Source: a phage
Strand: one strand, 5' to 3'
Assembly (NCBI GenBank): GCA_024683775.1
Contig: GCA_024683775.1_4106.1
Length of the DNA: 64,000 bases
A program made the translations under genes and the position numbers. Positions 23,343-48,409 of the stretch are shown here, piece by piece. Position 1 is the first letter of the stretch; the number at the start of each line of letters is the position of its first letter. The notes under the pieces are model-generated. The model did not search any database. It was not told the origin of the DNA and worked only from the letters and a program-made list of their open reading frames with translations.

Positions 23343-23594
23343 ATGAAAGTACTGACAGAACTAGAAATGTATCATAGATTTAATAAGTACTATCATTTAC
23401 TTAAGCCTATACAGAGGATTAAATGTCCATTTGAAGAGAAACAGGTTTTAATCTATGAGCACAAGTTCTTTGTATCATTAGGTACAGATCAACAAGAGTA
23501 CTATTTGACGTTGTACTTGATTACATTAATAGATTTCATTCACTATAAAACCACACAATCTAAACAAGCTAATAAAGAGAAATATGAAAACTAA
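23343..23594 (+). CDS. family A small protein (83 aa)
   Basis: Family A motif LGTDQQEYY; start trimmed to MKVLTELEMY right after previous stop. Confidence 0.65.
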   Translation: MKVLTELEMYHRFNKYYHLLKPIQRIKCPFEEKQVLIYEHKFFVSLGTDQQEYYLTLYLITLIDFIHYKTTQSKQANKEKYEN

Positions 23595-23922
23595 TATAAA
23601 ACTCAAGGTATATAAATCATTTGCAAGTACATACATCAAATGCCATACATGTAACTCTGTAATGGACTACAAAGGTAAGCCATTTGCACTTACTTATGAT
23701 AATACAAGAGGTTTTTATATATCTTTTGCTGATTACAAATATAACATGTACGAACACATTGACATTGAAGATTTAAGTACTTTATCTGAAGAGGAATACT
23801 TTCAAGAATCATTAGTATGGGATTTGGAGTTTCCTATGCCATTAGTACATAAAATGATAGTACTAATAAAAGAAACTAAACCTGTACCTAATGGTTATGA
23901 AGAACACATTATTGAGTATTAA
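23584..23922 (+). CDS. family B protein (112 aa)
   Basis: Motif EEEYFQESLVWD; near-identical tandem duplicate of CDS 23937. Confidence 0.7.
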   Translation: MKTNIKLKVYKSFASTYIKCHTCNSVMDYKGKPFALTYDNTRGFYISFADYKYNMYEHIDIEDLSTLSEEEYFQESLVWDLEFPMPLVHKMIVLIKETKPVPNGYEEHIIEY

Positions 23923-23936
23923 TATATAAGGTAACT

Positions 23937-24278
23937 ATGAAAACTAATATACAACTCAATGTATACAGTTCAGAAGAACATACATATATCAAATGCAGTC
24001 TATGTAAAGATGTAATGGACTACAAAGGTAAGCCATTCACAATTACTTATGATTCTGATGTTAATGATTTATATATATCATTTCTTAATTACGAAAAGAA
24101 AATATACAAGCACGTTGATATTAAAGATTTAAGTACTTTATCAGCAGAGGAATACTTTCAAGAATCATTAGTATGGGATTTAGAATTTCCTATGCCATTA
24201 GTACATAAAATGGTAGTCCTAATGAAAGAAGCTAAACCGGAGTTTAATGGTTATGAAGAACACATCGTTGAGTACTGA
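23937..24278 (+). CDS. family B protein (113 aa)
   Basis: Motif AEEYFQESLVWD; SD AAGGTAA upstream. Confidence 0.7.
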   Translation: MKTNIQLNVYSSEEHTYIKCSLCKDVMDYKGKPFTITYDSDVNDLYISFLNYEKKIYKHVDIKDLSTLSAEEYFQESLVWDLEFPMPLVHKMVVLMKEAKPEFNGYEEHIVEY

Positions 24279-24281
24279 ACA

Positions 24282-24497
24282 ATGAAAATATTATCATACG
24301 AAGATTACCGCAAGCTTCGCGGTATTTTGCGACCAGAAATTCAAAGAATTAATTCTCTTCCTATATCTAATGCAGAATGTTCAGTACTGAAAGATGAGTT
24401 AATATTAAAACACACAGTAGGAACTAACTATCAAGCTGATAGTGTTCGATATCTAATTTGGGGATTAATATGCATAGTAAAGGAAAAACAAGCTTGA
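24282..24497 (+). CDS. family A small protein (71 aa)
   Basis: Family A motif VGTNYQADS. Confidence 0.7.
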   Translation: MKILSYEDYRKLRGILRPEIQRINSLPISNAECSVLKDELILKHTVGTNYQADSVRYLIWGLICIVKEKQA

Positions 24498-24522
24498 CAG
24501 TACTTTTCATTACTGATATAGT
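24494..24522 (+). promoter_or_regulatory. candidate sigma70-like promoter (TTGACA-17-TATAGT)
   Basis: Hexamers read directly upstream of CDS 24554. Confidence 0.5.
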
Positions 24523-24553
24523 ACCTGTACGTTAATCATTAGGGTAGAAAATT

Positions 24554-24799
24554 ATGTTGAATTTTTTAAATTTCCTTATCGTCTTGTGTATTGTTCTTGG
24601 GATTGCACCATTTGTATTGTATTTCATGGATTCCGATGAAATGCAAAAGATGAATTGCACAAGGACAGGACAGAGTAGAGAAGAGACGATTCTTATGCCT
24701 GTTACCGTTATTGTTAATAATATGCCCATTACAAACATGGTCCCTACCCTAACGACAACGTACCAGTACTCTTGTACAGACGGAGAGAGGTGGAGATAA
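24554..24799 (+). CDS. small membrane protein (81 aa)
   Basis: ORF; SD AGGGTAGAAA upstream; hydrophobic N-terminal helix FLNFLIVLCIVLGIAPFVLYF. Confidence 0.6.
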   Translation: MLNFLNFLIVLCIVLGIAPFVLYFMDSDEMQKMNCTRTGQSREETILMPVTVIVNNMPITNMVPTLTTTYQYSCTDGERWR

Positions 24800-25122
24800 T
24801 GCGTAAGTTCAATTGTATTGTACGTAAGAATTCATGTTACATTGTAGTAGCTGATTTTAATACAGGTTCTGGGTTGAAGATATTTGAGTACAGAAAATGC
24901 AATAATTCTTTTCATTGGAAATTGGGTGCAAGAAAAGCAAAAACAATTTCAGTACCGAATTTATGTTCTATCTCTGAAGAAGAAGAGTTTCAGTACTTGT
25001 TAGTACATGATGATTCTTTAGGATTTACATTCGAAGATATGAAGGAAGTACAAAAGCAGATGATTGCACATTGTCATCTTCCACCGAATTTTGTTCAACG
25101 CGTATGTGAATTCTACATATAA
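24799..25122 (+). CDS. family B protein (107 aa)
   Basis: Motif EEEEFQYLLVHD; SD GGAGAGAGG upstream; trimmed from track ORF 24772. Confidence 0.65.
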   Translation: MRKFNCIVRKNSCYIVVADFNTGSGLKIFEYRKCNNSFHWKLGARKAKTISVPNLCSISEEEEFQYLLVHDDSLGFTFEDMKEVQKQMIAHCHLPPNFVQRVCEFYI

Positions 25123-25131
25123 GAGAAGAAT

Positions 25132-25443
25132 ATGAAATTTAATATAGCAAAAACATCGAGTATATGTATTTTTGGTTATGCAGAAGAGTTAGGTGATATT
25201 GACATTCTTTTGTACAAAAAGGATGGTGTTATGCATTTCAAGTACCAGGATGAAGAGGCAGACAATTATCTTTTACCTAATTTAGTACAAATGCAGGAAG
25301 AGGAATTATTCCAGTACAGCTTAATATACGACATTGATATTTGCACGATGCCAGTATTAATTAGTATTCAAAAAGTGATGCTCGATATGTATGATAATTT
25401 AATACAAGGTACAGCAGGGATAACCAAACATGTCAATATATAA
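25132..25443 (+). CDS. family B protein (103 aa)
   Basis: Motif EEELFQYSLIYD. Confidence 0.7.
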   Translation: MKFNIAKTSSICIFGYAEELGDIDILLYKKDGVMHFKYQDEEADNYLLPNLVQMQEEELFQYSLIYDIDICTMPVLISIQKVMLDMYDNLIQGTAGITKHVNI

Positions 25444-25636
25444 GGATTTACCTAATGCATATATGTTGAAGTATAAAGAGTTTATTAAAGATGTATATGT
25501 AGATCCGTTCAATATAAAATTATCAGAGTTCGATGTATCATTTTATCTAGGGACAATAGTACAGGAACAATACGTTGATAAGCTCATAAGGTGCATGAAA
25601 AATGAGATTCGATGGAGATTAGATGCAAATGTATAA
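25430..25636 (+). CDS. family A-like small protein (68 aa)
   Basis: Motif LGTIVQEQYVDKLI; located inside array B. Confidence 0.65.
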   Translation: MSIYKDLPNAYMLKYKEFIKDVYVDPFNIKLSEFDVSFYLGTIVQEQYVDKLIRCMKNEIRWRLDANV

Positions 25637-25880
25637 AAAGATAGATGCTTATTTGTATGCTTCAAAGTACAGGGATTTTTGTTTACGAGGGGGAGAGGAA
25701 GATTTCGCTCTGAGATTATCTGAATTTAATATGTTATTTTATCTTGGTACAAAAGAACAAGAAGATACAGTACAGAAATTTCTCAATCATCTTGTACAAA
25801 AAATTAATATGCAAATTTTGATGCTTAAGTTACAGAATGAGATAAATGAATATGAATCCAGAAATAGTTCAGGATCTTAA
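25623..25880 (+). CDS. family A-like small protein (85 aa)
   Basis: Motif LGTKEQEDTVQKFL; located inside array B. Confidence 0.65.
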   Translation: MQMYKKIDAYLYASKYRDFCLRGGEEDFALRLSEFNMLFYLGTKEQEDTVQKFLNHLVQKINMQILMLKLQNEINEYESRNSSGS

Positions 25881-26256
25881 AAAAGTAATATTTCTTTTGA
25901 ATACAAGAAGCTCTTTATATAAGGAGTTCAAGGATATTAAAACATCGTGTAATATAGATTTTTTTGAAACCATACATGCGGAGTTTCGTGATTTAATTGC
26001 AGATGCATTGTTTGAATTTTCCGAGAAATATCAAGGTACAGTCTTCGGTGTTAAGAATGTTCTTCGTCCAAGTACAGGTACAAGGAAGATTGAGTTATCA
26101 CATTTTACAATTGGTAACAACGATTTATTCAGTTATAACCCCAGTACATCTTTATATTTTATTCCTGTTTCAGACAAAAATCATCCTATTCATTACGGAT
26201 GGATTATATCTTATACAATAAATGGAACGGAGTATCCTATCAAATGGCACGATTAG
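25846..26256 (+). CDS. hypothetical protein (136 aa)
   Basis: ORF; no family motif recognised. Confidence 0.55.
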   Translation: MNMNPEIVQDLKKVIFLLNTRSSLYKEFKDIKTSCNIDFFETIHAEFRDLIADALFEFSEKYQGTVFGVKNVLRPSTGTRKIELSHFTIGNNDLFSYNPSTSLYFIPVSDKNHPIHYGWIISYTINGTEYPIKWHD

Positions 26257-26396
26257 GGTGTGAAGATTATAATATGAATATATTATTAAGAAATATTAAT
26301 GCAGATTATTGTGTATGGGTTAAGAATAGAGATATGATGTATTATGATTTTTATTTAGATTGTGCCATTAAGCGTTATTTGAGGGAAGAATTTTAA
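26244..26396 (+). CDS. hypothetical protein (50 aa)
   Basis: ORF overlapping previous stop; start uncertain (track ORF 26199). Confidence 0.4.
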   Translation: MARLGCEDYNMNILLRNINADYCVWVKNRDMMYYDFYLDCAIKRYLREEF

Positions 26397-26578
26397 TGAA
26401 ATCATATGAAGCAAGAACATTTGATGATTTAAATAATTCATTGATTACAAGCATTAAGATGTATTACAATATACATTTAAAGGGTGGAATTAATGATTTT
26501 AGTTATTATCTTAGTGCAATATTACAAGAGCATTTAAATTATCAAGATCGTTTATTACATCCAAATCCACCAAATTAA
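26396..26578 (+). CDS. hypothetical protein (60 aa)
   Basis: ORF; start abuts previous stop. Confidence 0.5.
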   Translation: MKSYEARTFDDLNNSLITSIKMYYNIHLKGGINDFSYYLSAILQEHLNYQDRLLHPNPPN

Positions 26579-26589
26579 GGAATACCAAT

Positions 26590-27150
26590 ATGAATGATAT
26601 TGAGTTATTGGTACATAAGATTTGCACAATATCGTTAGTGCTGAACAATGCGAATACAGTACAGAGTTCCCTTTTAAGAATTAATAAAGTTGGGAGTAGT
26701 TTATATTTGGAAGTAAAAGCTGGTTTTGCAGGACAGTACAATGATAAAATCAAAGAAGAAGTTAAGGGAAATGAAGATGCTTTCATTGAGGTTTGTGCAA
26801 CAGTTGGTTCAAATCCAATTTCAGTATCACCTTTAATGCGAAATGAAAATTCAGAATTTGATTCCAGTTTTGAAGGTTATTTGTGGTACAATTATGGTGA
26901 TGATTATTTTATATATCAAAATTCCAAAACGGATTATAGTGAAGAAGGTATAAAATTCATTGATCCTTACAATGAAGCAGAAGTATTTCAGACATCCCTA
27001 ATATACAATACAAATCAAATGAAGTATCTTATGTTGTTTAGTACAATGCATTTGAATCCATTGAAAGATAATTTAAAATTTTTCATTCGTTTAGAATTAG
27101 TTGATATTGCTTATGATCTTTTAATGCAAGGATATAGTTATGAAGTATAA
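26590..27150 (+). CDS. family B protein (186 aa)
   Basis: Motif EAEVFQTSLIYN. Confidence 0.7.
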   Translation: MNDIELLVHKICTISLVLNNANTVQSSLLRINKVGSSLYLEVKAGFAGQYNDKIKEEVKGNEDAFIEVCATVGSNPISVSPLMRNENSEFDSSFEGYLWYNYGDDYFIYQNSKTDYSEEGIKFIDPYNEAEVFQTSLIYNTNQMKYLMLFSTMHLNPLKDNLKFFIRLELVDIAYDLLMQGYSYEV

Positions 27151-27451
27151 AATGCTGTATACATTAACATTAATATATGTAGAATTAGAATCCGATTCAG
27201 ATGCATGGAATTTGGTTAAAGAGGTCGATACCAATCAATGGTACATGGCAAATTTAGACGAACATGTTGTTACGGATTATTTTATAGATTTTAATACATT
27301 ATCTGAAGAAGAATTTTTCCAAATGCAATTGGTGGTTGACATGTACGGACATGACATGGTAACATTAAGAAATATACAGAAAGTCGTTAATGAATTCCAA
27401 AGCAAGAAAGATTATGAGGTAGGAGCGTATTATGACATCGACGTACAGTGA
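27140..27451 (+). CDS. family B protein (103 aa)
   Basis: Motif EEEFFQMQLVVD; tandem duplicate of next gene. Confidence 0.7.
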   Translation: MKYKMLYTLTLIYVELESDSDAWNLVKEVDTNQWYMANLDEHVVTDYFIDFNTLSEEEFFQMQLVVDMYGHDMVTLRNIQKVVNEFQSKKDYEVGAYYDIDVQ

Positions 27452-27798
27452 AAGCAATGAGTACAATAGTTATGATATATAAAATGCTTTATACAGTATC
27501 GGGGATATATGTAGAATTAGAACCCGATTATCCAGATGGATGGAATTTTATTAAACGCTCCGAAAGAAATACATGGCACATGGCACATTTGGATAATGAC
27601 GTAATATTAGACAATTTTGTGGATTTTAATACATTATCAGAAGAAGAATTCTTCCAAATGCAATGTGTGCTTGACACAAAAGGATTTGATGTGCTATTAT
27701 TAAAGAATATACAGAAAGCTGTTAACGAATTAATATCCAATGACGAGTTAGGCAAAGTGAGGCTGTTCCATGATCTCGAAGTACCGTACCAGCAATGA
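27448..27798 (+). CDS. family B protein (116 aa)
   Basis: Motif EEEFFQMQCVLD; true start may be the internal Met at 27472. Confidence 0.65.
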   Translation: MKAMSTIVMIYKMLYTVSGIYVELEPDYPDGWNFIKRSERNTWHMAHLDNDVILDNFVDFNTLSEEEFFQMQCVLDTKGFDVLLLKNIQKAVNELISNDELGKVRLFHDLEVPYQQ

Positions 27799-28339
27799 AA
27801 TTCAGTACACCTACGCTAATGCAATCCTAATGGGACAAAAGTTAGCTTGTATTGTTGCAGCCTTATATAATGTACAAAAAGCAGCACATAATAAAAAACC
27901 ATATACAAGAATCATTAACGCATTCATGGGGTTTAAACCATCTGATTTTGATTCACATATTGCGTGCACAAGTTATTTTGACAAACGATTCAATACACCT
28001 GATACCCCAAATGCCCGTAGTGTTATTAGTCTTTTACAGTTTAATCCAACACCAGTTATATCAAAGAATGATTTGGATTACACATGGTACAATTCAAATC
28101 AAGATTCATTTTATTCTAATGATCAATCGATTGAATATAATAAAATTAAATCAGAGGAAGCATTTTTTCAGGAATCATTATTTACACATGAACGTTCTTT
28201 GTTTTATAGTGTTATGTTGAGTACAGTATACAATAGTCCATTACACAAGAATAACAAAATTAATTTCAGTTTTTGTGCTTATGCGATTGATGGTGTTTAT
28301 GAGTGCTTAATGGAGGTATTGAGTTATGAAGCTGAATAA
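27770..28339 (+). CDS. family B protein (189 aa)
   Basis: Motif EEAFFQESLFTH. Confidence 0.65.
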   Translation: MISKYRTSNEIQYTYANAILMGQKLACIVAALYNVQKAAHNKKPYTRIINAFMGFKPSDFDSHIACTSYFDKRFNTPDTPNARSVISLLQFNPTPVISKNDLDYTWYNSNQDSFYSNDQSIEYNKIKSEEAFFQESLFTHERSLFYSVMLSTVYNSPLHKNNKINFSFCAYAIDGVYECLMEVLSYEAE

Positions 28340-28667
28340 TACATTTGATATTAAGAAGTTAAGAGAATGGTTTTATAGTATTGAAATTGAAGCCATTCCT
28401 TATCATAGATATGAACAAAGTGATTTACAAAGTATTGATATCAGAGAGTTGTACAAATATTATCAGAGTGCATTAGAGATGCATAAGTTATTTTTGAGTA
28501 CAAATTTCATTCTAAATTACAATTTTGAGGAATTTAATAATTATAATTTAGTACAGAAATATGTAGTAGCAAAGTACATGTACAATCAAGGTATCAAAGG
28601 TTGCCTCGAATTCAATACCGTTCTTATTTTAGTTGAGGTAATTTTATGCACCGCATGTCTGATTTAG
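28326..28667 (+). CDS. hypothetical protein (113 aa)
   Basis: ORF in array; no family motif recognised. Confidence 0.55.
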   Translation: MKLNNTFDIKKLREWFYSIEIEAIPYHRYEQSDLQSIDIRELYKYYQSALEMHKLFLSTNFILNYNFEEFNNYNLVQKYVVAKYMYNQGIKGCLEFNTVLILVEVILCTACLI

Positions 28668-29143
28668 AGTTCAGTTTAGATGCAGCCTTTAAATTTGTTC
28701 ACAAAATTGAAACAATATATCGTACATTATGTGCAATAACATCAGTATCAAAAGAGTTTGATGTTGGTGAAAGGTATCAGGTGTGGAATAATTCATTTTA
28801 TAATAAAGAACATTCTGCGACGGCATTTTATATTTTAGCATTTAATCCCAGCAATTGTTACCCAGAGAAGCATGAACGTTATCCAAATGACGACATGTGG
28901 TTTGAGTACAAAGAAGATGCTGATATGTCGTCAATTGTAGTTCCTGATGATTTTAATGCACAAGATTTAACAGAAGAGTGGTGGTTCCAGCAGAATTTAG
29001 TACATGATGATATTGATTTATTTTTCTATATTGCATTTAAAATGCTTTATCACAACAATATAGTTAAAGAAAGTTTATCGTTTTCATGTCTATATATTGA
29101 TGATTTGTACAATGAAATTCAAATAAACATGCCTGTATCGTAA
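28646..29143 (+). CDS. family B protein (165 aa)
   Basis: Motif EEWWFQQNLVHD. Confidence 0.7.
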   Translation: MHRMSDLEFSLDAAFKFVHKIETIYRTLCAITSVSKEFDVGERYQVWNNSFYNKEHSATAFYILAFNPSNCYPEKHERYPNDDMWFEYKEDADMSSIVVPDDFNAQDLTEEWWFQQNLVHDDIDLFFYIAFKMLYHNNIVKESLSFSCLYIDDLYNEIQINMPVS

Positions 29144-29161
29144 GATATGGGCTTTTTTTGT

Positions 29162-29190
29162 TTGACACGAGTACAAATGCATGGTACAAT
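29162..29190 (+). promoter_or_regulatory. sigma70-like promoter (TTGACA-17-TACAAT)
   Basis: Hexamers read directly; internal promoter within array B. Confidence 0.6.
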
Positions 29191-29215
29191 GTGTAATCAT
29201 TTTAAGGAGATACCT

Positions 29216-29791
29216 ATGGAAAATTTTAAAATACCAGATGATTTCAATTCAGTACAAGAGATTGTACACAAGGTTCATTATATTTTTAATGAATTAATTA
29301 TTGCCAATTCATCCGGTATGCAAATTGAGTTAAAGGATATTGATAGAGAAGAAGTTTTTTTGGGTTCCCCAAATTCAATCATTCCTTTTTATGGACAAGA
29401 TCGTTTATGGTTCATGAGAGATACCCCAATTGACAAATACAAAATACAAACAAAATCAGAGTTTTATTCTATTTTTGAATATCTTAATATTACATTACAA
29501 ACACAAGATATAAATGCAATAAGTGCCATGAGTGCTGAGGAATATTTTCAGTACAGTACATTGCATAGTCCAGAAGAAATCTTTGTTGTTATGCTCGTTG
29601 CAAAATTAAGTACAGTTGATTTTGGGACGTACCCAAATAAATCATTCAAGATTATTATTCCTGCATTCGTTGATCTTTATGATTTCATTGTGCACAAGAA
29701 AGAAAGTACAGTGTACGATATGTATCGTTCAAATATCAGTTTATTTGCATCAAGTGCAGTAAATGCAGTGATTACAGGGGAATTAAAATGA
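29216..29791 (+). CDS. family B protein (191 aa)
   Basis: Motif AEEYFQYSTLHS; SD TAAGGAGA upstream; trimmed from track ORF 29147. Confidence 0.7.
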   Translation: MENFKIPDDFNSVQEIVHKVHYIFNELIIANSSGMQIELKDIDREEVFLGSPNSIIPFYGQDRLWFMRDTPIDKYKIQTKSEFYSIFEYLNITLQTQDINAISAMSAEEYFQYSTLHSPEEIFVVMLVAKLSTVDFGTYPNKSFKIIIPAFVDLYDFIVHKKESTVYDMYRSNISLFASSAVNAVITGELK

Positions 29792-30396
29792 ACATAGACC
29801 AATTAATGAAGTACAGTACAAGTGCAATCACAGTGCTAAGTAAAGCATTAGATTCATTCAATGCTAAGTACCCTGAAGGTTCAGAGTTAAATATTCCTTT
29901 TACCACAGAGGGGATTGTTGATACGTACATTGTAAACATCAGTAGTACAGGTATTGTTTTGAAGCAAAAGTACGGCGAAAGTGAATATTATGGATTGAAG
30001 CTGGATAATATTTCAGGAGAGAAGACACCTTATGAGTTTTGGGTTCCGAATAACATTGAGTCATGGAAAACAAATATTAATAAGAGAGACGAAAGAAATT
30101 TACCTCTTGTACAAAATAATGAAAAAAGAATTGATGTATTTTATTATTACAGTACAGCCCAGTTTCCAGAAGAGATTTATTTAAATTCAGAGGTGCATGA
30201 AGATATTGAATCATTTTTCTTTCAGTTATCATTGGTACAGGATATCATGCCTGTGCAAATGTTCAGGGATGAAATAAATTTAGCGAAAGAGATTTCGGAT
30301 ATGTTACCTGAATTTAGTGTTCTTTATGGTAGTAGAGCTTTACCTGAAAATGTTTACAAAGAATTTATTTCCATTGTTAAAGGGTTGAATATATAA
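29788..30396 (+). CDS. family B protein (202 aa)
   Basis: Motif ESFFFQLSLVQD; ATGA overlap. Confidence 0.7.
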   Translation: MNIDQLMKYSTSAITVLSKALDSFNAKYPEGSELNIPFTTEGIVDTYIVNISSTGIVLKQKYGESEYYGLKLDNISGEKTPYEFWVPNNIESWKTNINKRDERNLPLVQNNEKRIDVFYYYSTAQFPEEIYLNSEVHEDIESFFFQLSLVQDIMPVQMFRDEINLAKEISDMLPEFSVLYGSRALPENVYKEFISIVKGLNI

Positions 30397-30397
30397 T

Positions 30398-30592
30398 ATG
30401 ACCGCCTATGATATCAAACAAAGGCATACGAAGTTTGATTTGTTCACATACCAATTCCACAATGATATAGTGAATTTTAACATCAATGCGTCATTGCATC
30501 CTACATCACAAGATGATTTTGACAACAGAGTGCTTAACATCGTGGTGCTTTTGTGTTATAATCATTTCAGTGAATATTTTAACACAAGATAA
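30398..30592 (+). CDS. hypothetical protein (64 aa)
   Basis: ORF between family B genes; no motif. Confidence 0.5.
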   Translation: MTAYDIKQRHTKFDLFTYQFHNDIVNFNINASLHPTSQDDFDNRVLNIVVLLCYNHFSEYFNTR

Positions 30593-30605
30593 GGTTGAGG
30601 CACAC

Positions 30606-31124
30606 ATGTATCAGGCCAAGTACAATACATCATATGCATTTGCACACAACATTTTGAAGATCATCAAAGCGTTAGAGGGTGGATTGCTTAGTCATAAGTA
30701 CACCAAAGTAGGTGACAATTGGTTCAGAAATGATGATGAGTTCAGAAGTCATAAGATTGTTTACAGCAATAATTACAGTGCTAATTACCTTCAGGATGTT
30801 GCTATGTGCTTCGAATACGTGTTACAGTTCAGGGGTTCCATCAGTCCTGAGCTAAGAGAACACATGTACATTCGATACCTACCAATGCTTAAGGATGAGA
30901 AAACAATATTCAATTCAGTACACCACAGAGTACGAGAGAGAACATTCAGGGATATTTTAGAAGATGAAGCTGCATATTTCCAGCAATCATTGATTGATGC
31001 TCCTGATGTGTTACAGATGCAGAATTTGTATAATGTATTAGATGCGAACATCGATACGGATATCTTTTTTTCCTTAAGTGATTATGAAACATTTTTGGAA
31101 GATTTAAAGGAAATAGGATTATGA
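30606..31124 (+). CDS. family B protein (172 aa)
   Basis: Motif EAAYFQQSLIDA; SD AAGGTTGAGG upstream; trimmed from track ORF 30486. Confidence 0.7.
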   Translation: MYQAKYNTSYAFAHNILKIIKALEGGLLSHKYTKVGDNWFRNDDEFRSHKIVYSNNYSANYLQDVAMCFEYVLQFRGSISPELREHMYIRYLPMLKDEKTIFNSVHHRVRERTFRDILEDEAAYFQQSLIDAPDVLQMQNLYNVLDANIDTDIFFSLSDYETFLEDLKEIGL

Positions 31125-31465: not shown

Positions 31466-31475
31466 GGAAAGTACA

Positions 31476-33890: not shown

Positions 33891-33891
33891 T

Positions 33892-34418: not shown

Positions 34419-34419
34419 T

Positions 34420-35327: not shown

Positions 35328-35329
35328 TA

Positions 35330-39470: not shown

Positions 39471-39475
39471 ATGCC

Positions 39476-40163: not shown

Positions 40164-40170
40164 GGTTAGT

Positions 40171-40704: not shown

Positions 40705-40730
40705 CACCCTCCAAATCTTTGTGATATAAT
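40701..40730 (+). promoter_or_regulatory. sigma70-like promoter (TTGACA-18-TATAAT)
   Basis: Hexamers read directly upstream of CDS 40764. Confidence 0.55.
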
Positions 40731-40763
40731 CTCTTTATATTAATTGTAAAGGGTTATATCACT

Positions 40764-41243
40764 ATGTCCAAAGACCTATCATTTAGCAATGCACAAAAAA
40801 TCGCACAAAATATCATTAAACTTCATAAGTTCTTTGTAACAGTTAAAGAGAATATAATTCTCCCACGATGCACACTTTATGCGTACAAAAATTATTTGTC
40901 AATGAATAGCAATTTGTTGCATACTACAGATGAGAATTTCTGTGGTATTCGTGTACTTGACGATGCACCATCAGGGGATTTTATCTCATATTGTTTCCAT
41001 ACATCTGATAGTTTTAAGTACTATCATCCTAGATCTAATGATGATGATGAATATGACACATTTAATGTTAGATCAGAAGAAGAATTCTTCCAGTACAGTA
41101 CTTTGTACAATGAGAGAATCGTGTTTAGTTCTACAATTTTTACAGTACTTAAAGATGAACTCAATGACGCAAATGATAGATTCTATATGGATTTAAACTT
41201 CGTAGATGAAATCATTGAGTACATGGAGAAAAATGGTCTATGA
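40764..41243 (+). CDS. family B protein, MSxxSAL-like subgroup (159 aa)
   Basis: Motif EEEFFQYSTLYN. Confidence 0.7.
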   Translation: MSKDLSFSNAQKIAQNIIKLHKFFVTVKENIILPRCTLYAYKNYLSMNSNLLHTTDENFCGIRVLDDAPSGDFISYCFHTSDSFKYYHPRSNDDDEYDTFNVRSEEEFFQYSTLYNERIVFSSTIFTVLKDELNDANDRFYMDLNFVDEIIEYMEKNGL

Positions 41244-41722
41244 TTACAACAGAATATGATTACGATGGTGTTTTAGAATTTGCATCTAACATTCATCGCA
41301 TTGCAAAGGAGTTCAGAAGTCCCCAACCTTTCGGTGGAATGCCTTTTGGTGGAATGTTCCAATATGACCAATTCAGTTCAACCAAAGGAAGACTTGCCTT
41401 TAAAAATAATAAGGGCAATCAAGTATATGCTGAGTTCTTTGACGATAATGACTTTCACTACAGAGCTGAATATATTTCATATTGCCAAGGGTCTGATTTG
41501 AAGATTAACATTGATACATTTAGAGATTCAGTGTTTATCCCTTATAGTGAGTTAGTTTTCATGACAGAAGAAATGTACTTCCAAGGGTCTTGTATTCATG
41601 ATGCAAAAGTACTTAATGCTATATTACTTTATGGTGCACTACTTCATCATTACAAATACAAACAACGATTCTTTATAGATTTAGTTGTATACCATCAATG
41701 CGTGGATTATTTGAATGCATAA
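41240..41722 (+). CDS. family B protein (160 aa)
   Basis: Motif EEMYFQGSCIHD; ATGA overlap. Confidence 0.7.
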   Translation: MITTEYDYDGVLEFASNIHRIAKEFRSPQPFGGMPFGGMFQYDQFSSTKGRLAFKNNKGNQVYAEFFDDNDFHYRAEYISYCQGSDLKINIDTFRDSVFIPYSELVFMTEEMYFQGSCIHDAKVLNAILLYGALLHHYKYKQRFFIDLVVYHQCVDYLNA

Positions 41723-42077
41723 TACAACAACAATTCAGTACATGACGGATGGCAATGATTGCTTTGCTTCAAGATATGAATTCATCAAGAACCATTTCGT
41801 AACCTATATCCCTGAATATAATCAGTTTTATCTACAGATTTACCAAAATGATTCATATATGAATGAGATATATTCTGAAATAAAAATCCCTGATTATAGT
41901 ACTTTATCAGAAGAGGAATTGTTTCAGGAGAGCACTGTCAATACTGAAGATGTGTACGAACTAATGGAATACCAGAAGGTACTTAAATATTTCCATGAAG
42001 TTCAGGATATACAAATGGATAGTGTTAAAACGTGGAATTATAACACATACGAGGTAAATTATGTTCGAAATGATTAA
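41715..42077 (+). CDS. family B protein (120 aa)
   Basis: Motif EEELFQESTVNT. Confidence 0.7.
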   Translation: MHNTTTIQYMTDGNDCFASRYEFIKNHFVTYIPEYNQFYLQIYQNDSYMNEIYSEIKIPDYSTLSEEELFQESTVNTEDVYELMEYQKVLKYFHEVQDIQMDSVKTWNYNTYEVNYVRND

Positions 42078-42474
42078 AATTATGCAACGATGCATTGTTG
42101 ACCAACATGGAATATATGGATATAGTTTAAGTGCAGCTATTGACAAAAACAAAACAACATATGTAAGCTATAATGCAGTACTTGGATTTGATATATTCAT
42201 TAATGCCAACAATAAAATCAAACAAGCCAAGGATGTATCTATAATGACCCCTGATGAGCTATTTCAGTACAGCTTAGTTCTGCCGGGCTGTATTGATTTA
42301 CAACGTCTAGGAGCTATACAGAAGGTTTTACGCGAACATAAAGTACAACCAAATAAAATCACACACATTCCAGAAACATTCTACAAACCCATAGAAGTAG
42401 AAACACCTGATTATATGTTAAGTGATGATGAGTTCTACGAGAAACACTTCCCTGGTAAAGTTTGGAGAGACTAA
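42061..42474 (+). CDS. family B protein (137 aa)
   Basis: Motif PDELFQYSLVLP. Confidence 0.7.
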   Translation: MFEMIKIMQRCIVDQHGIYGYSLSAAIDKNKTTYVSYNAVLGFDIFINANNKIKQAKDVSIMTPDELFQYSLVLPGCIDLQRLGAIQKVLREHKVQPNKITHIPETFYKPIEVETPDYMLSDDEFYEKHFPGKVWRD

Positions 42475-42956
42475 TGAACCGAAAGTACAGAGAAACTATG
42501 AAGTTCGCTAAGGAGTGTTTAGAGACAATTGATTTCATTTTCGATAACAAAGACTCATTGGGCCGTCACTTCGTAATTACAAAGAAAGAAGATAAGAGAT
42601 ACAAGTGTCAACGATTAGGATACAGTATTGAGTTCTCCTTAATGATTGATGGCATGATAAACTCCTTATATGAATGTGGTAAGACTTATTACATTTCATT
42701 TAGATCTTGGAGTGAACGTGTCATGTTCTTGACTCCAAATGGAGTTGTATATCCTTTTCTTGATGATTTATCAGAAGAAAGTTACTTTCAAAATAGTTTA
42801 ATTTACACAGAAAAAGAACTCAAAATGCTATTCATTATGTCGTACTTTAAAAAGTACTGCAAATTTAAATCATTAGCTTTTGAGATTTCTGCAATGAAAG
42901 TATTCATTAAAAATGTAAAAGAATTAAAGAGGATTTACGATGTACATAGAAAATGA
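42462..42956 (+). CDS. family B protein (164 aa)
   Basis: Motif EESYFQNSLIYT followed by LFIMSYFKK. Confidence 0.7.
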   Translation: MERLMNRKYRETMKFAKECLETIDFIFDNKDSLGRHFVITKKEDKRYKCQRLGYSIEFSLMIDGMINSLYECGKTYYISFRSWSERVMFLTPNGVVYPFLDDLSEESYFQNSLIYTEKELKMLFIMSYFKKYCKFKSLAFEISAMKVFIKNVKELKRIYDVHRK

Positions 42957-43482
42957 TAATGTAAAATGCATTTCCGACATTTGTATAAAATTAATGAAAA
43001 TTTTCATTAACCCAAAATACAAGACTCGTTCATTACGTCATGACATTGATGAACATTGTGTAATTACTATTCTAGGTAATATGCTTGATGTAAAGTACGA
43101 TGGTAAATTGTTATTCGGTGTCCGAGAAGAGAAGATAGATGATGTCTTCTTTTCTCCTAAAGATAAGTTTGAACCTTCTGATTATAAAGTAATTATTCGT
43201 GATGATAGTATCTACATTAGCAGTGATCATTCAAATTACGTCGAACAGATATACACTGAAAATGTTGACTACAACCATGAACTACTAGATTTACCAACAT
43301 CAGACATAGATATGGAGAGAATCAAATTTTCATTATCAAATAATGAGTACTTAGGTATACAAACATATTATGCACTTCAGGGAAAGATTCCACCTGCGAT
43401 GTATATAAGAATTGAGATTGGTAATGTATTCAATGACAAGGTTATATCAATTGCTGATAAAATATTGAAGGTACAATTATGA
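42940..43482 (+). CDS. hypothetical protein (180 aa)
   Basis: ORF in array; no family motif recognised. Confidence 0.55.
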   Translation: MYIENDNVKCISDICIKLMKIFINPKYKTRSLRHDIDEHCVITILGNMLDVKYDGKLLFGVREEKIDDVFFSPKDKFEPSDYKVIIRDDSIYISSDHSNYVEQIYTENVDYNHELLDLPTSDIDMERIKFSLSNNEYLGIQTYYALQGKIPPAMYIRIEIGNVFNDKVISIADKILKVQL

Positions 43483-44036
43483 ATTTTACTAATTATAATT
43501 TACATAGACTTGAATTACGTCATTGTATTGCATTTGCAAAAACATTAATGTGCATCATTGATACACTATCATCTAAAACTTTTCGAAAGGATAATGATTT
43601 ATGCCTTAAAAAAGGTAAAGTACAAAAATACGATTATACAGATGAAACGTATTTTGATATCTTTTTGGGAACAAATGATAGTACAAGAGTAGGATGTTTG
43701 GGAACAGTTGGAACACATTGCTTTACATGGAATCCAAATTCAAGTACAGTACGAATTGACACCAACGATACATGTTATGCTGACCTTAGTACTGAATCTG
43801 ATTTAGAATCAGTTATGTTCCAACACATGTTAATTCATAAACCAAATGAAATTCTTTATCTTGTTGCTTTTAGTTATCTCTTACAAAATTATAAATCAGG
43901 TTTTACTATTGAAACTGATATCGATGAGATTATGGATGAGATTCCTAGTTTAAAAGATATTCTTGAAGAAAAAGATTTCTATCAGGACTTTAGAGATTTA
44001 TACAACATGCACAGGGAGTTATCTGATAATGAATAA
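43479..44036 (+). CDS. family B protein (185 aa)
   Basis: Motif ESVMFQHMLIHK; ATGA overlap. Confidence 0.65.
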   Translation: MNFTNYNLHRLELRHCIAFAKTLMCIIDTLSSKTFRKDNDLCLKKGKVQKYDYTDETYFDIFLGTNDSTRVGCLGTVGTHCFTWNPNSSTVRIDTNDTCYADLSTESDLESVMFQHMLIHKPNEILYLVAFSYLLQNYKSGFTIETDIDEIMDEIPSLKDILEEKDFYQDFRDLYNMHRELSDNE

Positions 44037-44547
44037 AGATGATATTCTAATCAGACTAATCAACAGTCTGTTAAAATTCGTGAATAGTGATAGCGATACA
44101 CACAATGTAGGTGACATTGAATTCAAATCATTTGGAATGTACGGTGAGGACAAAACATATTATGCATCAATGAAATTCCAAGATTATTATGAAATGTTAA
44201 TTGCGTTAACATACGAAGATGTGGACCCAAGATGGAGTTCCAGTATTTCTCTGTCGAGAATGGTAATTCGTAGTAAACATCGTTACATTTCGTCAAAGAA
44301 TACTCCTAATTTGTTTGATATTGTTTTGAATGAAAATACCAACCCCCCATCTAAACATGATATCGTACCTTTAACTGATGAAGTACAGTTTCAATTGAGT
44401 ACCATTTGTGATGAAGATGTGATATCATGTATGAAAATTTACGAGAAGATTGGTAGTGATATCCCTAAGAACTATTACATAACAATAGATGGAACGTACC
44501 TCCGAGATGAGGCTCTAGCGTACATTGACAGCGTTTTACCAAAATAA
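44029..44547 (+). CDS. family B protein (172 aa)
   Basis: Motif DEVQFQLSTICD; trimmed from track ORF 43963. Confidence 0.65.
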   Translation: MNKDDILIRLINSLLKFVNSDSDTHNVGDIEFKSFGMYGEDKTYYASMKFQDYYEMLIALTYEDVDPRWSSSISLSRMVIRSKHRYISSKNTPNLFDIVLNENTNPPSKHDIVPLTDEVQFQLSTICDEDVISCMKIYEKIGSDIPKNYYITIDGTYLRDEALAYIDSVLPK

Positions 44548-44568
44548 AGACCCTTATGGGTCTTTTTG
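44548..44568 (+). terminator. rho-independent terminator
   Basis: Hairpin AGACCC-TTAT-GGGTCT followed by TTTTT. Confidence 0.75.
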
Positions 44569-44578
44569 TGTTTAGTGC

Positions 44579-44607
44579 TTTACATGAGCATTCAGGTGTG
44601 TTATAAT
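44579..44607 (+). promoter_or_regulatory. sigma70-like promoter (TTTACA-17-TATAAT)
   Basis: Hexamers read directly; SD ACAGGAGAAG follows before CDS 44635. Confidence 0.6.
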
Positions 44608-44634
44608 CGCTTTTAACAGAGTACAGGAGAAGAT

Positions 44635-45198
44635 ATGAGTACTGAATTAATTAAAGAAATCACATTGTTGGTAAAGCATTGTTTTAAGTTCATTGATGAT
44701 AATGGTTCACGCCAGTACATTAAAGTTAATGAGAAATATAACATTAACGTCCTAAAGAATGAAACCGTTAACAGTTATGCAAACATTGAGTTAGATGTTG
44801 AGGACAAATACACAGCATTACACATCATTTCGTCCGGCGATAGAAAACAAGATTATCGTTCTACATTTTATGATGATAGTGTTACTGTTGGTTATAAATT
44901 TCATAAAAATAAAATTGCTTATAAGAATACATACACACATGAAGTAATTGAAGAGTACAATTATAAAATTAAAAAAGACGAGTACGATGTACTTTTATTC
45001 AATGCGAATCTCATACACAACGCTGGTACTGTTCGCAATCTTATGTTAGCATATGAAATTCCAAAGATTATAGAAAGAAATGAATTGATAATCTTTAAAA
45101 CTATATTAAAATTCAGTACAGAAGAATTAGAAGATCTAGTACTGGCTCTTAAGACGTTCATCAATGAACATGTACCTGTTAAATTAGAGGACTTATAA
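44635..45198 (+). CDS. hypothetical protein (187 aa)
   Basis: ORF with promoter and SD; no family motif recognised. Confidence 0.65.
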   Translation: MSTELIKEITLLVKHCFKFIDDNGSRQYIKVNEKYNINVLKNETVNSYANIELDVEDKYTALHIISSGDRKQDYRSTFYDDSVTVGYKFHKNKIAYKNTYTHEVIEEYNYKIKKDEYDVLLFNANLIHNAGTVRNLMLAYEIPKIIERNELIIFKTILKFSTEELEDLVLALKTFINEHVPVKLEDL

Positions 45199-45782
45199 TG
45201 CAAGCTGAACACATTCAAATTATGAAATTGATGCATGACATTGCAGAACTATCTGAAAAGCACAACATTACTGAACATGAGCCTATTGGAAATTATCGTC
45301 TTAAAGTTGAATGCAAATCACCATATCGTTTTGGTTCAGTAGTACTGGAGTCTTATAAAGTTTACGATTATGGAACGACAAAAAAAGGTTCATGGGATAC
45401 TATGGCAATGTATATCCGTACATCAAGGCATAGTGAGCGAATTGGTTCCATTACTCCAAACATGATATTTGTCAATGCTTTACACGAAGATATTAATCGA
45501 ATTGTTGAATCTAATTTTGATGACGTAGAGAATGATACATATTTGGAAATTCCACCAGAACTAGATCAAAGTGAAGACATTCGTGAAGCATACATTTTCC
45601 AGAGATCAGTACTTGACAACTTCAAGGAGTTTGAGTACATGATGCTTTGCTATGAAACTGCAAAAGCTATTGACACTGGTGAATTGGTAATGTATAGTAA
45701 GTTCATTAACTGTGAATCCGATACATTAAAAGAGCTACACACGGCAATCAAAAACATCAAGGATACATATGAACGCTTATAG
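45198..45782 (+). CDS. family B protein (194 aa)
   Basis: Motif EAYIFQRSVLDN. Confidence 0.65.
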   Translation: MQAEHIQIMKLMHDIAELSEKHNITEHEPIGNYRLKVECKSPYRFGSVVLESYKVYDYGTTKKGSWDTMAMYIRTSRHSERIGSITPNMIFVNALHEDINRIVESNFDDVENDTYLEIPPELDQSEDIREAYIFQRSVLDNFKEFEYMMLCYETAKAIDTGELVMYSKFINCESDTLKELHTAIKNIKDTYERL

Positions 45783-46347
45783 TTATATGACAGCCCGACA
45801 CCAACAGCTATATGATATCAGTACAAAGATGCTACACATTGTTGGTAGTGCCAAAGAAATTAACAAACATTACCTCATTCGTGATGTGTCATTTTCATCT
45901 AAATGTTTGTCCAAAGAATATTACGATCACGGTATTCTTACTATTTCTGGTGCCAGGAATATTTGTATTGTAAAAAATAATAGTAAAAGTAATGAAGAGT
46001 GCGAGATTAGATCCGATATCCAAATTAATGATGATGGAAGTTTTTCACACCATCCATTTCATATTAGTACTGTTGGTGTTTTATATAATATTAAAGTACT
46101 ATTCGGTGATAAAGAGTATGAGTTAAAAGCTATCAATCCAGAATCAAGTACAGTTGATGAAGAACTGTTTCAGATGAGCACCGTTATACCTGAAGAGGTT
46201 CTTAGTACTGTTGTTTTTTGTAGTTTAATTTATCACACATACAAAAAGAACCAGTTCGATTTCCACATTTTAGGAACGTACATCTTCAATACTTTGAATG
46301 TTGATCGTTTAAAAGCATTAAATGCAGCAATGGATAAGGTGCTATAA
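45769..46347 (+). CDS. family B protein (192 aa)
   Basis: Motif DEELFQMSTVIP. Confidence 0.7.
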   Translation: MNAYSYMTARHQQLYDISTKMLHIVGSAKEINKHYLIRDVSFSSKCLSKEYYDHGILTISGARNICIVKNNSKSNEECEIRSDIQINDDGSFSHHPFHISTVGVLYNIKVLFGDKEYELKAINPESSTVDEELFQMSTVIPEEVLSTVVFCSLIYHTYKKNQFDFHILGTYIFNTLNVDRLKALNAAMDKVL

Positions 46348-46775
46348 TGACAAGAGATGAATGCTTATACATATGGGATATAATTGAAACTACACTTTCA
46401 AATCCAGAAAATTATAAAACAAAAAAAAGACAACGACACAAAATATGGATAGATTTGTTCGTTGAGGGCATACACGCAGTGACTATTTGGGATTCACCGA
46501 GGGCATCATCATCTACTCTGTTGGACAATGAATGCATTGATTGCATTAATTCCAATTTTCATCTCCACGGTACTACATATTTCGGCACATTTCTGGATAT
46601 TGAAAGTAAAGATGATATTGATTCACTTGCTTTACAATACGGAGTACTGTATGATACTAAATTAATTTACGATTTAGTACTAGCTTCTTATGTGTATAAA
46701 TTAATGATGAAATACAATCACATTTCTGTATCAGTTTATACTAAGGATATTCTTTCATTAAGAGACAAAACATGA
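46347..46775 (+). CDS. hypothetical protein (142 aa), possibly divergent family B
   Basis: ORF; weak motif DSLALQYGVLYD. Confidence 0.55.
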   Translation: MTRDECLYIWDIIETTLSNPENYKTKKRQRHKIWIDLFVEGIHAVTIWDSPRASSSTLLDNECIDCINSNFHLHGTTYFGTFLDIESKDDIDSLALQYGVLYDTKLIYDLVLASYVYKLMMKYNHISVSVYTKDILSLRDKT

Positions 46776-47278
46776 GTTTATTAAATGCACGAGAATTAGT
46801 TGAGATGTATGAGATCTTATCTTCATATAAAAATTCCCCAAAAGATGTAATTCTAAACAAAAAGTTCCATGTCAGTGTTGAACATATAACAAATATAGAT
46901 ATGATTTCTTTGGTGGAAAGTAATAAGTCAGGTCTGGAGCGTGATATCATGCGTTTGATTTATATTCCTAAACCATCATATACTAATGATAGTACTATTA
47001 GCAATGAGACATTCATGTATAGTCCTGGTACGGATTCTACTATAGTATCGCTGTCAAATAAATCAATGGATACTTTCCAATTCATCTATACCAGTACTGA
47101 TAACATTGAAGAAAATGAATTCCAAAACAATACATTAAGTTCATGTAGTAGTGTTATAACCTTTATGTCATATCTGTGGTCAATCAAATCAAATGCAATT
47201 GTATATAGTTCTAATTACACACAAGATAGTATTGTTGAATCATTTAAAGTTCTAAAGGAATACTATGAAAATAACTAA
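46772..47278 (+). CDS. family B protein (168 aa)
   Basis: Motif EENEFQNNTLSS; ATGA overlap. Confidence 0.65.
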   Translation: MSLLNARELVEMYEILSSYKNSPKDVILNKKFHVSVEHITNIDMISLVESNKSGLERDIMRLIYIPKPSYTNDSTISNETFMYSPGTDSTIVSLSNKSMDTFQFIYTSTDNIEENEFQNNTLSSCSSVITFMSYLWSIKSNAIVYSSNYTQDSIVESFKVLKEYYENN

Positions 47279-47846
47279 TGATTTTATTAGAAGCTTAGTG
47301 CACCCTATGCTTGGTGTTATGAAAAAATTACAAACTCTACCTGAAGACAACGATTACAAGTTTAATCGTTTTGATTCAGATGTGTTTTGTATTGAAATGG
47401 AAATTAATAACAATCGTTATTTTCATTTAAAATTCAAAGAATCGTCGAGTTCGCACTACAACTTTGACATGAATTTTAAAATAAGCAATGATATTGAAGA
47501 AAACGCAATATCAAATCATATTAGCAGAAATGGTTTCATGCATAGAACTAATATGTTCAATAATAAAAACAGTATTATATCTAAATGGAATCATCAATTC
47601 ACTAAAATTTGTGATATTGATTGCAGTACATTTGGTGAAGAACAATACTTTCAGTTAAGTACAATACATGAACTTCCACCATATGATTGTGTAAAAACAT
47701 GGTTTGATATTCATAATATAATTGATGATGCAATCGTACTTCCATTTGGGTTGTCAATATCATATACTGCACCTAAAACGTTTGTTTTTACTGAAGATAT
47801 GATTATGAAAAAGATATGGGCGATGATGCCACTTATGCTTGATTAA
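47265..47846 (+). CDS. family B protein (193 aa)
   Basis: Motif EEQYFQLSTIHE; paralog of 47858. Confidence 0.7.
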   Translation: MKITNDFIRSLVHPMLGVMKKLQTLPEDNDYKFNRFDSDVFCIEMEINNNRYFHLKFKESSSSHYNFDMNFKISNDIEENAISNHISRNGFMHRTNMFNNKNSIISKWNHQFTKICDIDCSTFGEEQYFQLSTIHELPPYDCVKTWFDIHNIIDDAIVLPFGLSISYTAPKTFVFTEDMIMKKIWAMMPLMLD

Positions 47847-47857
47847 CGGAGAACTAC

Positions 47858-48409
47858 ATGAATCAAAGTCATGATCTTTTTAAATTATGTGCATCCAAAG
47901 ATGTGGAAGGATGGGCAGATAAAATCAATACAATTATTAACCGTTATCTTGGCTTCTGTGCACGTTCACGAAGTGAAGGTTCAATGCGTTTCCAAATAAC
48001 CATGACAATCGATGGTGTTACGATTTATGTCAACGAAGAGCGTCTTGGTATTATTCTCTATGATAGTTGTGTCTTTGCTATTCACCAGAAAATGGGGGCA
48101 GGTTGGGGTTGTAATAATATGAACACCAATGCTTTTTTCTGGGTAGGTCATAGCAACACAGTACTTGATCCTTCAAAGAAATCAAACCTTTTAGATGATA
48201 ATTTGGTATATGATTTAGCTTACTCTGAAGAACAACATTTCCAGTTAAGTACAATACATAGCTTAGTTCAATATGAAGATTGTATCAAAGCATTAGAATT
48301 ATGTCATTCACTTGAACTTAAAGAAAAATTGATACAAATTTACCCGTTGTTCTTCCATGAAGAAGTACAATGCACACTAGATCATATTTTATATGGGTAC
48401 GACAAATGA
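47858..48409 (+). CDS. family B protein (183 aa)
   Basis: Motif EEQHFQLSTIHS. Confidence 0.7.
   Translation: MNQSHDLFKLCASKDVEGWADKINTIINRYLGFCARSRSEGSMRFQITMTIDGVTIYVNEERLGIILYDSCVFAIHQKMGAGWGCNNMNTNAFFWVGHSNTVLDPSKKSNLLDDNLVYDLAYSEEQHFQLSTIHSLVQYEDCIKALELCHSLELKEKLIQIYPLFFHEEVQCTLDHILYGYDK

Follow-up and report, generated by a model that had tools for sequence, protein, structure and literature searches.

Evolution and anatomy of a tandem array of EExxFQxS genes, probably an ancient multigene family of Rak2-like jumbo phages

Introduction

How did a phage come to carry some 46 related small genes in a row, and is that row still growing? The question is raised by a 64,000-nucleotide stretch of phage DNA (contig GCA_024683775.1_4106.1 of GenBank assembly GCA_024683775.1; hereafter the window), in which two arrays of small genes, array A and array B, follow one another on the same strand (Table 1). 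An original prediction, made from the sequence alone, described neighbouring genes of array B as near-identical and obviously recent duplicates, and proposed that the array grows by ongoing tandem duplication followed by divergence of the N-terminal region. Here we compare the array B genes with one another and with their counterparts in related phages, and describe the evolution and anatomy of what is probably an ancient multigene family of Rak2-like jumbo phages.

A 12-kb piece of the array region matches 36 phage records, all from jumbo phages of E. coli or Salmonella that belong to the 121Q/PBECO4 group (Asteriusvirus), and the closest record to the window is fEgEco12 (98.5% nucleotide identity). 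Every gene beneath the 12-kb match is labelled 'hypothetical protein' in all of these records.

Results

The EExxFQxS family

Array B begins directly after array A and spans ~28 kb with a GC content near 0.31; 50 of its 66 gene junctions overlap. Its members share a module situated 45–65 residues from the C-terminus, [ST]-x-E-E-x-x-F-Q-x-S-[LT]-[VI], which is followed by a helix. Mean column identity in the alignments is 16–19%. Among 22 aligned long members the only invariant residues are M1, F, and Q, with one E nearly so; in an alignment of 35 short members, some of them metagenomic, both F and Q are invariant, with a second Q nearly so; and in a further family alignment Q is invariant and F is present in at least 90%. 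The short and long types are related to each other (hhalign probability 93.5%) and have the same predicted topology. Most of the proteins are acidic, with a median isoelectric point of 4.8.

Our own hidden Markov model (HMM) of the family finds 47 genes in the window. An independent HMM, built from RaK2 and metagenome members only, finds 41 window genes at E <0.01, none of them outside the list of 47, and the six further members are recognised only through the motif and our own HMM. The outlying candidate at 62921 is matched by our own HMM and missed by the external one. Array B members match phrog_9317, 12674, 13866, 15629, 33987, 34017, 34636, and 35972 (E 1e-32 to 1e-116), all of them annotated 'unknown function', and cross-match each other's PHROG families weakly. 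Scans of the family against Pfam and NCBIfam gave no match, and PHROGs gives no functional family.

Within the array, a terminator-like hairpin followed closely by a promoter-like site (29131–29190; Table 1) may mark a break between transcription units. Genes without the motif (49592-50005, 50517-50990, 51881-52354, and 53387-54495) are embedded in the distal part of array B; these are 42–62% identical in amino acid sequence to RaK2 proteins, versus 21–30% for the surrounding members, and have no Pfam match.

Table 1. Features of the window, with coordinates counted from its first nucleotide
Feature	Coordinates	Strand	Remarks
Terminal-repeat-like region	1..17554	+	Homology to the direct terminal repeat (DTR) of related phages; putative end at ~17554
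Array A, 27 tandem small genes (65-94 aa)	17653..23594	+	LGTNYQE motif; all 26 junctions overlap
Array B, ~46 tandem EExxFQxS genes (103-214 aa)	23584..51838	+	Interspersed with a few unrelated small open reading frames (ORFs) and 5 array-A-type genes
Pair 1 copy a, 112 aa	23584..23922	+	Divergent copy; in about 6 of ~35 genomes
Pair 1 copy b, 113 aa	23937..24278	+	Groups with single-copy orthologs: 97% to Ecwhy_1, 87% to PBECO4
Pair 2 copy a2, 103 aa	27140..27451	+	
Pair 2 copy b2, 116 aa from GTG start	27448..27798	+	Alternative start ATG 27484; 78% to the single 121Q ortholog
Terminator-like hairpin with T-run	29131-29152	+	Consensus match only
Promoter-like site, extended -10	29162-29190	+	11/12 consensus matches
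Short-type block, four genes	32759..34236	+	32759/32795-33172, 33169-33525, 33525-33890, 33892-34236; common CNLxKGD and FQxSLxFDK
Long-type block, four genes	34420..36239	+	34420-34890, 34887-35327, 35330-35821, 35796-36239; one ortholog each in PBECO4 and 121Q
Pair 47265-47846 and 47858-48409	47265..48409	+	Both with orthologs in PBECO4, 121Q, and A4; 47265 also in RaK2
Dam-type DNA N6-adenine methyltransferase	56636..57160	+	Pfam PF05869, E 2.5e-32; 'DNA methyltransferase' in PBECO4 and 121Q
Outlying candidate member, 229 aa	62921..63610	+	SEEEHFQLMMM; 11 kb beyond the array; best BLAST partner of 47858

Similarity between neighbouring genes

All of the named genes lie at the coordinates originally given, on the + strand, and neighbours are more alike than distant members are. 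In an all-against-all BLASTP comparison of 120 tiling genes the named neighbours are the top-scoring pairs, and across 51 array genes the mean normalised Smith-Waterman score falls from 0.110 for adjacent genes to 0.078 at distance 2 and ~0.057 at distances of at least 4, the adjacent value being matched by 0 of 10,000 permutations of gene order. The best partner is adjacent for 14 of the 51 genes (~2 expected) and lies within three positions for 22. The median neighbour score, at 0.054, is no higher than that of distant pairs, and the neighbour effect is thus confined to a few clusters.

The copies in these clusters are neither near-identical nor obviously recent. The most similar pair, 23584/23937, is 70% identical in amino acid and 82% in nucleotide sequence (81.6% over 342 bp, the maximum in the window), and its synonymous divergence (dS) of 0.30 is the lowest among the tandem pairs; the others are 34–55% identical in amino acid sequence, with dS ranging from 0.6 to saturation. 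Values are 55% (71% at the nucleotide level) and a dS of 0.60 for 27140/27448, 41–48% and 0.86–1.9 for paralogs of the 32759 block, and 34–43% and >1.4 for those of the 34420 block. For 47265/47858 a forced alignment gives 36% identity with saturated dS; the BLAST alignment of this pair extends over 31 residues only, around EEQxFQLSTIH (E 4e-5), and 47858 scores best not with 47265 but with gene 62921, 15 kb off. Self-comparison of the window and six related loci revealed no tandem copy above 82% nucleotide identity, whereas accordion-like amplification is recognised by near-identity (above ~95%). The four genes of the 32759 block all carry CNLxKGD, as described, but the second motif attributed to them, LFQESLVFDKKY, is exact in two of the four only, the others having FQASLVFDKNKY and IFQESLIFDKKY.

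Orthologs and the age of the copies

Reciprocal-best orthologs were mapped in fEgEco12, PBECO4, 121Q, A4, and JNE01. Nearly all array genes have such orthologs, in the same order, with amino acid identities of 41–98% to PBECO4 and 121Q and 75–100% to fEgEco12; in 121Q the orthologous array corresponds to genes 342–408. Each gene of the 34420 block has its own ortholog in PBECO4 and 121Q (69–95% amino acid identity), and three have one in A4 too. PBECO4 (locus position 18520-19011) and 121Q contain a fifth member of this block that is absent from the window. The 32759 block has three genes that are conserved in PBECO4 and 121Q and a fourth that is variable and is replaced there, coinciding with a megablast breakpoint at window position 34409 that is seen in many genomes. 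For genes 34420–35796, the pair 47265/47858, and the three conserved genes of the 32759 block, ortholog identity (69–97%) is far above paralog identity. All of these genes are one-to-one across PBECO4, 121Q, and mostly A4, and for them the words 'ongoing' and 'recent' find no support.

Each array B copy is a gene kept by purifying selection between species. The pooled ratio of nonsynonymous to synonymous divergence (dN/dS) between orthologs of the window and PBECO4 is 0.26 for array B and 0.19 for other, flanking genes; within array B it is 0.28 for the N-terminal parts (N-parts) and 0.23 for the C-terminal parts (C-parts).

The family is also present, with at least 24 members, in RaK2, a Klebsiella phage of a different genus. 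The distal array of RaK2 is collinear with the window between 42.9 and 54.5 kb, and the reciprocal-best pairs, which include an ortholog of 47265, are 21–30% identical. In a metagenomic contig (Logan SRR7533027; 17267 bp, GC 0.387) 29 of the 35 genes match the EExxFQxS HMM. These match window genes only locally (23–60% identity over 20–115 residues) and form independent clusters of similar neighbours of their own, with up to 55% amino acid identity. Because this contig consists almost wholly of EExxFQxS genes, the family reaches beyond the cultured Rak2-like phages. A scan of 1.84 billion representative proteins identified 94 family clusters only, many of them 28–48% identical to anything in the sampled loci. 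The collinearity with RaK2, the metagenomic contig, and the 94 divergent clusters together indicate that the family is old, confined to this phage group, and shaped by birth-and-death evolution. The top match of the representative-protein search, P0041 (773 aa), is not a family member but a translated tandem repeat.

Copy number among isolates

Copy number does differ among isolates for pairs 1 and 2, as the original prediction would have it, but not for the other named clusters, and the units that vary are old. As judged by match spans, pair 1 is present in two copies in the window, fEgEco12, EC.P1, WPEC3, vB_Ec-M-J, and Turkey3, and in a single copy in ~28 other records; Ecwhy_1 is single-copy though it is 99.3% identical to the window elsewhere. 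The repeat unit is exactly one gene, running from its start codon to its stop codon (353 bp). For pair 2, ~9 of 34 records have both copies. fEgEco12 contains four array genes that are absent from the window, two A-type and two B-type (locus positions 6391-6615, 7739-7987, 12220-12594, and 15170-15676), which are 29–52% identical to the nearest window gene (39–52% for three of them); window genes 21165-21395 and 25430-25636 have no close counterpart in fEgEco12. Whole-gene presence or absence thus separates the window from relatives to which it is 97–99% identical.

The age of the varying units follows from paralog dS exceeding ortholog dS in both pairs. In pair 1, dS between copies a and b is 0.30, versus 0.19 between b and PBECO4 and 0.05 between b and Ecwhy_1; in pair 2, dS is 0.60 between a2 and b2 versus 0.27 between b2 and the 121Q ortholog. 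A neighbour-joining tree of pair 1 (~112 codons, no bootstrap support) places copy b with the single-copy orthologs and copy a outside all of them. Pairs 1 and 2 reflect either an old duplication with repeated loss of one copy, or the stacking of two alleles by unequal recombination of diverged co-infecting genomes.

Faster divergence of the N-terminal region is demonstrated for one pair, pair 1. In that pair the N-part has dN 0.29 and dS 0.26 (dN/dS 1.1) and the C-part dN 0.08 and dS 0.35 (dN/dS 0.23; Fisher p = 0.02), but in pair 2 the N- and C-parts do not differ in dN/dS. Among the older pairs dN is higher in the N-part, with dS saturated. The conserved portion of the proteins is the C-terminal module: across all pairs, the N-parts score like shuffled sequence (median 25 vs 25) and the C-parts above it (33 vs 23).

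As a history, growth by tandem duplication followed by divergence stands: it is supported by the clustering of similar neighbours, by the gene-sized repeat unit of pair 1, and by the same clustering in the metagenomic array. It is the description of this growth as ongoing that the data do not support.

Predicted structure

An AlphaFold2 model of the long-type protein 35330 (predicted local distance difference test score, pLDDT, 86; predicted template modelling score, pTM, 0.82) contains, in order, an N-terminal helix, a seven-stranded sheet, a short helix with F113-Q114, a long helix, a strand, and a helix. That of the short-type protein 33169 (pLDDT 90, pTM 0.85) consists of a five-stranded sheet followed by the helix that bears F70-Q71, a further helix, and a strand. 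The family fold is accordingly predicted to comprise a variable N-terminal beta-sheet (preceded by an N-terminal helix in the long type), a conserved F-Q helix, a second helix, and a final strand. A profile search of Protein Data Bank (PDB) sequences found no relative of the family, and the AlphaFold models have none among solved PDB structures. A Foldseek comparison with the viral models of BFVD gave matches only to uncharacterised proteins of 121Q, RaK2, GAP32, Serratia phage BF, and Yersinia phage fHe-Yen9-04.

Alternative explanations

If the array were growing now, its neighbours being fresh duplicates like those of the poxvirus 'genomic accordion' and divergence having only begun at the N-terminus, neighbours should be the most similar pairs, as they are. 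The two pairs whose number varies among isolates otherwise >97% identical, the four extra genes of fEgEco12, and the N-part dN/dS of pair 1 also fit. However, with the best pair at 82% nucleotide identity (dS 0.30), dS of at least 0.6 in all the others, and nothing above 82% in seven loci, duplicates of that freshness are missing; three of the five clusters are one-to-one across species, the paralog split is older than the ortholog split in both variable pairs, and the 'extra' fEgEco12 genes are only 29–52% identical to their nearest window gene. We therefore regard current growth as improbable and, for the window, as largely refuted. A better candidate, though still a doubtful one, is that each variable pair consists of two alleles of one locus, stacked by unequal recombination between co-infecting diverged relatives. 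Copy b is 97–98% identical to the single copy of close relatives and copy a falls outside all orthologs in the neighbour-joining tree; the allele from which copy a is least diverged at synonymous sites is that of A4 (dS 0.24), and copy a has NMYEHIDIED in common with A4 and 121Q. The pair 2 locus moreover has three deep allele types (a2, b2/121Q, and PBECO4/A4), and Ecwhy_1 shows mosaicism, its identity to the window falling from 99.3% in one segment to 92% in the next. The same pattern results, however, from an old duplication followed by repeated loss of copy a, no genome with copy a only is present among the records examined, and the tree on which the placement depends is short and has no bootstrap support. 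Were adjacent copies instead kept alike by gene conversion (concerted evolution), their likeness would give no clue to when the duplications took place. The C-half of pair 1, ~92% identical at the nucleotide level against ~72–76% for the N-half, could resemble a conversion tract, but dS is the same or higher in the C-half (0.35–0.38) than in the N-half (0.24–0.26). Because the halves differ at nonsynonymous sites and not in dS, the conserved C-half reflects selection, and conversion is ruled out as its cause; across species, genes resemble their orthologs far more than their paralogs, whereas concerted evolution predicts the reverse. As an explanation of the array as a whole, conversion is very unlikely.

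Two further readings concern what the genes are. The tobacco etch virus (TEV) and 3C proteases recognise the consensus ExxYxQ|G/S, and FQ followed by S or G could be a cleavage site of this kind, the members being processed substrates such as injected or head-internal proteins. Genes 36989 (36989-37435, EEGYFQGS) and 41240 (41240-41722, EEMYFQGS) fit it exactly, and E at P5/P6 together with Q at P1 is found in many other members. In most members, though, the Q is followed by E, Q, N, Y, or L and the S comes one residue later, so that the full consensus is present in only ~2 of 47; the motif lies within a helix (pLDDT 96–98 in the long-type model) rather than in a linker, and the accessible part of the phAPEC6 virion proteome contains no array member. 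Nor did a protease come to light in the window, though no search was aimed at one. On the counts of full matches and the helical position we reject a TEV-like site, which has hardly any likelihood left. The two exact TEV motifs are probably coincidence, and matter in practice when genes 36989 and 41240 are expressed with TEV-cleavable tags. Least credible of all is that the ORFs are non-functional, decaying filler DNA. They are annotated 'hypothetical protein' in every record and have no Pfam match, but they are intact and tightly tiled in all genomes, their ortholog dN/dS is 0.26, they are conserved across genera, and they give confident AlphaFold models; purifying selection and cross-genus conservation refute this reading.

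Position of the arrays

The depositors of vB_Ec-M-J annotate 'Direct Terminal Repeats' at 1-21525 of that genome. Window 1000-4000 aligns within this DTR, and window 18000-20965 aligns to 21971-24949 of vB_Ec-M-J. Since by these alignment offsets the end of the vB_Ec-M-J DTR maps to ~17554, the arrays appear to begin just past the terminal repeat, array B lying ~6 kb inside the putative left boundary. The mapped end falls in a 250-bp gap (17403–17653) upstream of the first array gene, and the GC content drops across it from ~0.39 to ~0.31, near 18–20 kb. A promoter-like site is present at 17595-17622, beside the mapped end.

Array A and the flanking regions

Array A is the tighter of the two tandem families; the overlaps between its genes are often ATGA, and the proteins have a near-invariant G-T-x-x-Q (LGTNYQE). 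Array A genes all match families of the phrog_4148 type, of unknown function, and the A-type family is also present in RaK2. Five A-type genes are scattered beyond array A (24282-24497, 25430-25880, and 37946-38333). The ortholog dN/dS of array A (window versus PBECO4) is 0.40, above that of array B. A common origin of the two arrays is ruled out by an hhalign probability of 0.2%.

To the left of the arrays, from 1 to ~17.5 kb, GC content is near 0.39 and small genes are spaced by gaps of ~80 bp. This terminal-repeat-like part contains dispersed DNA repeats of ~200–230 bp that are 76–90% identical (44-243, 6370-6601, 10016-10328, and 13299-13527) and mostly intergenic; similar ones occur in the A4 and JNE01 loci, and they could be repeated regulatory elements. 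The segment 1000-1500, comprising gene 930-1199 and its neighbours, matches DNA of ~110 unrelated coliphages with genomes of ~140–150 kb (rV5-like, Vequintavirinae, and Phapecoctavirus), at 85% over 502 bp in phage A7_1 and 90–100% over 33–61 bp in many others, which suggests that a small gene has been exchanged horizontally between phage groups.

To the right, array B is followed by mixed genes that include a third small family and the Dam methyltransferase, the only gene in the vicinity of the arrays whose function can be recognised. The third family is a tandem one at 58908-61047 whose genes encode 86–128 residues and start MN(Y/L)xD(I/F)QFTYK; neighbours are 27–30% identical (E 1e-7 to 1e-9). 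Scans for tRNA genes and Rfam families over the whole window found none.

Discussion

Proposed history and function

Our preferred account, which we consider likely, is that array B is an old multigene family. The family expanded in gene-sized tandem steps, mostly before the Asteriusvirus species split, the expansion of the distal half predating the split from Alcyoneusvirus (RaK2). Copy number still shifts by gain or loss of whole genes, mostly in the proximal half (23.5–36 kb), with old paralogs as the units. Duplication presumably occurs through unequal homologous recombination between adjacent paralogs or co-replicating genomes.

The products are presumably intracellular proteins that do not enter the virion and are translated from long polycistronic transcripts. 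Their expression is probably early, as the location of the array just inside the terminal repeat would suggest. That location and the nearby Dam methylase are hints of position for an early role in host takeover or anti-defence, and the CBB paper predicts an early region at a comparable place. In the accessible portion of the phAPEC6 virion proteome table no entry falls between gp347 and gp549, the array members of that phage being numbered like gp442c, and the accompanying text mentions no gp4xx besides Gp44; both concern one related phage. We tentatively suggest that array B could be a battery of intracellular binder or inhibitor proteins, in which the FQ helix pair would provide a common scaffold or handle and the variable sheet would recognise a host or defence target specific to each copy. 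The grounds for this suggestion are architecture, position, and analogy. More speculative still is a general picture in which EExxFQxS would be a phage-specific domain, present as ~25–50 non-redundant paralogs in each Rak2-like jumbo phage (~8% of the genome), forming a host-takeover or anti-defence binder battery that is the counterpart of the terminal multigene families of poxviruses and African swine fever virus (ASFV), with gain and loss of proximal copies tuning host range.

Several points weigh against these proposals. The terminal repeat boundary near 17554 is a putative one, transferred from the annotation of another isolate. Ortholog dN/dS gives no strong signal of an arms race and differs little between N- and C-parts. 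Neither the promoter nor the terminator scan showed an excess over shuffled sequence (112 promoter-like sites versus 108 expected); since promoter-like sites are not enriched, it is gene packing only that suggests an operon structure. Mass spectrometry of virions can miss low-abundance proteins, and we found no transcriptome paper for Asteriusvirus or Alcyoneusvirus.

The question of ongoing duplication matters little in itself, since dozens of published genomes carry orthologous arrays. The interest lies in the family: ~46 genes (28 kb) under purifying selection, cross-genus in distribution, with an invariant F-Q and a confidently predicted fold that has no solved relative. Jumbo-phage 'dark matter' such as this could plausibly supply host-takeover or anti-defence proteins, and the definition of the family, together with the map of its conserved and variable copies, makes it directly testable.

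Comparison with known systems

In general terms, tandem duplication of this array has been published before. Hua et al. (2017, mBio; PMC5646251) described an array of tandem-duplicated genes in 121Q (and in phage G), in the same phage genus and genomic region as the array of the window, and Wagemans et al. (2020; PMC7247149) repeated the statement for phAPEC6; the RaK2 paper reports that ~10% of RaK2 genes are paralogues, and the CBB paper lists 22 paralogous ORFs. The 121Q account gives no family definition, motif, dating, or comparison of isolates and does not specify array A or B, and its term 'very similar' overstates the case for array B, given the low column identity. As far as we could find, the family definition, dating, and fold prediction are new. 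PHROGs splits the array B family into many small groups, which are unified here by the EExxFQxS module and a common fold.

Among other viruses, array B resembles the poxvirus genomic accordion in having head-to-tail, gene-sized repeats in a large double-stranded DNA virus and differences in copy number between isolates. In the accordion, as in the transient amplification of K3L, the copies are identical and short-lived, whereas those of array B are at most 82% identical in nucleotide sequence, individually conserved across species, and stable. The MGF360/505 genes of ASFV and the ankyrin/PRANC host-range genes of poxviruses are terminal multigene families of large eukaryotic DNA viruses. They too comprise dozens of diverged paralogs on one strand next to terminal repeats, with variable copy number and a conserved and a variable part. 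No sequence or fold relationship to them was found, however, the host of array B is bacterial, and a role in host range or anti-defence would be assigned by analogy only. In bacteria, polyimmunity loci are tandem arrays of small acidic immunity proteins, for example of the SUKH superfamily; array B likewise encodes, in tandem, many diverged alpha+beta proteins that are small and acidic, every one of which is presumed to have a binding partner of its own.

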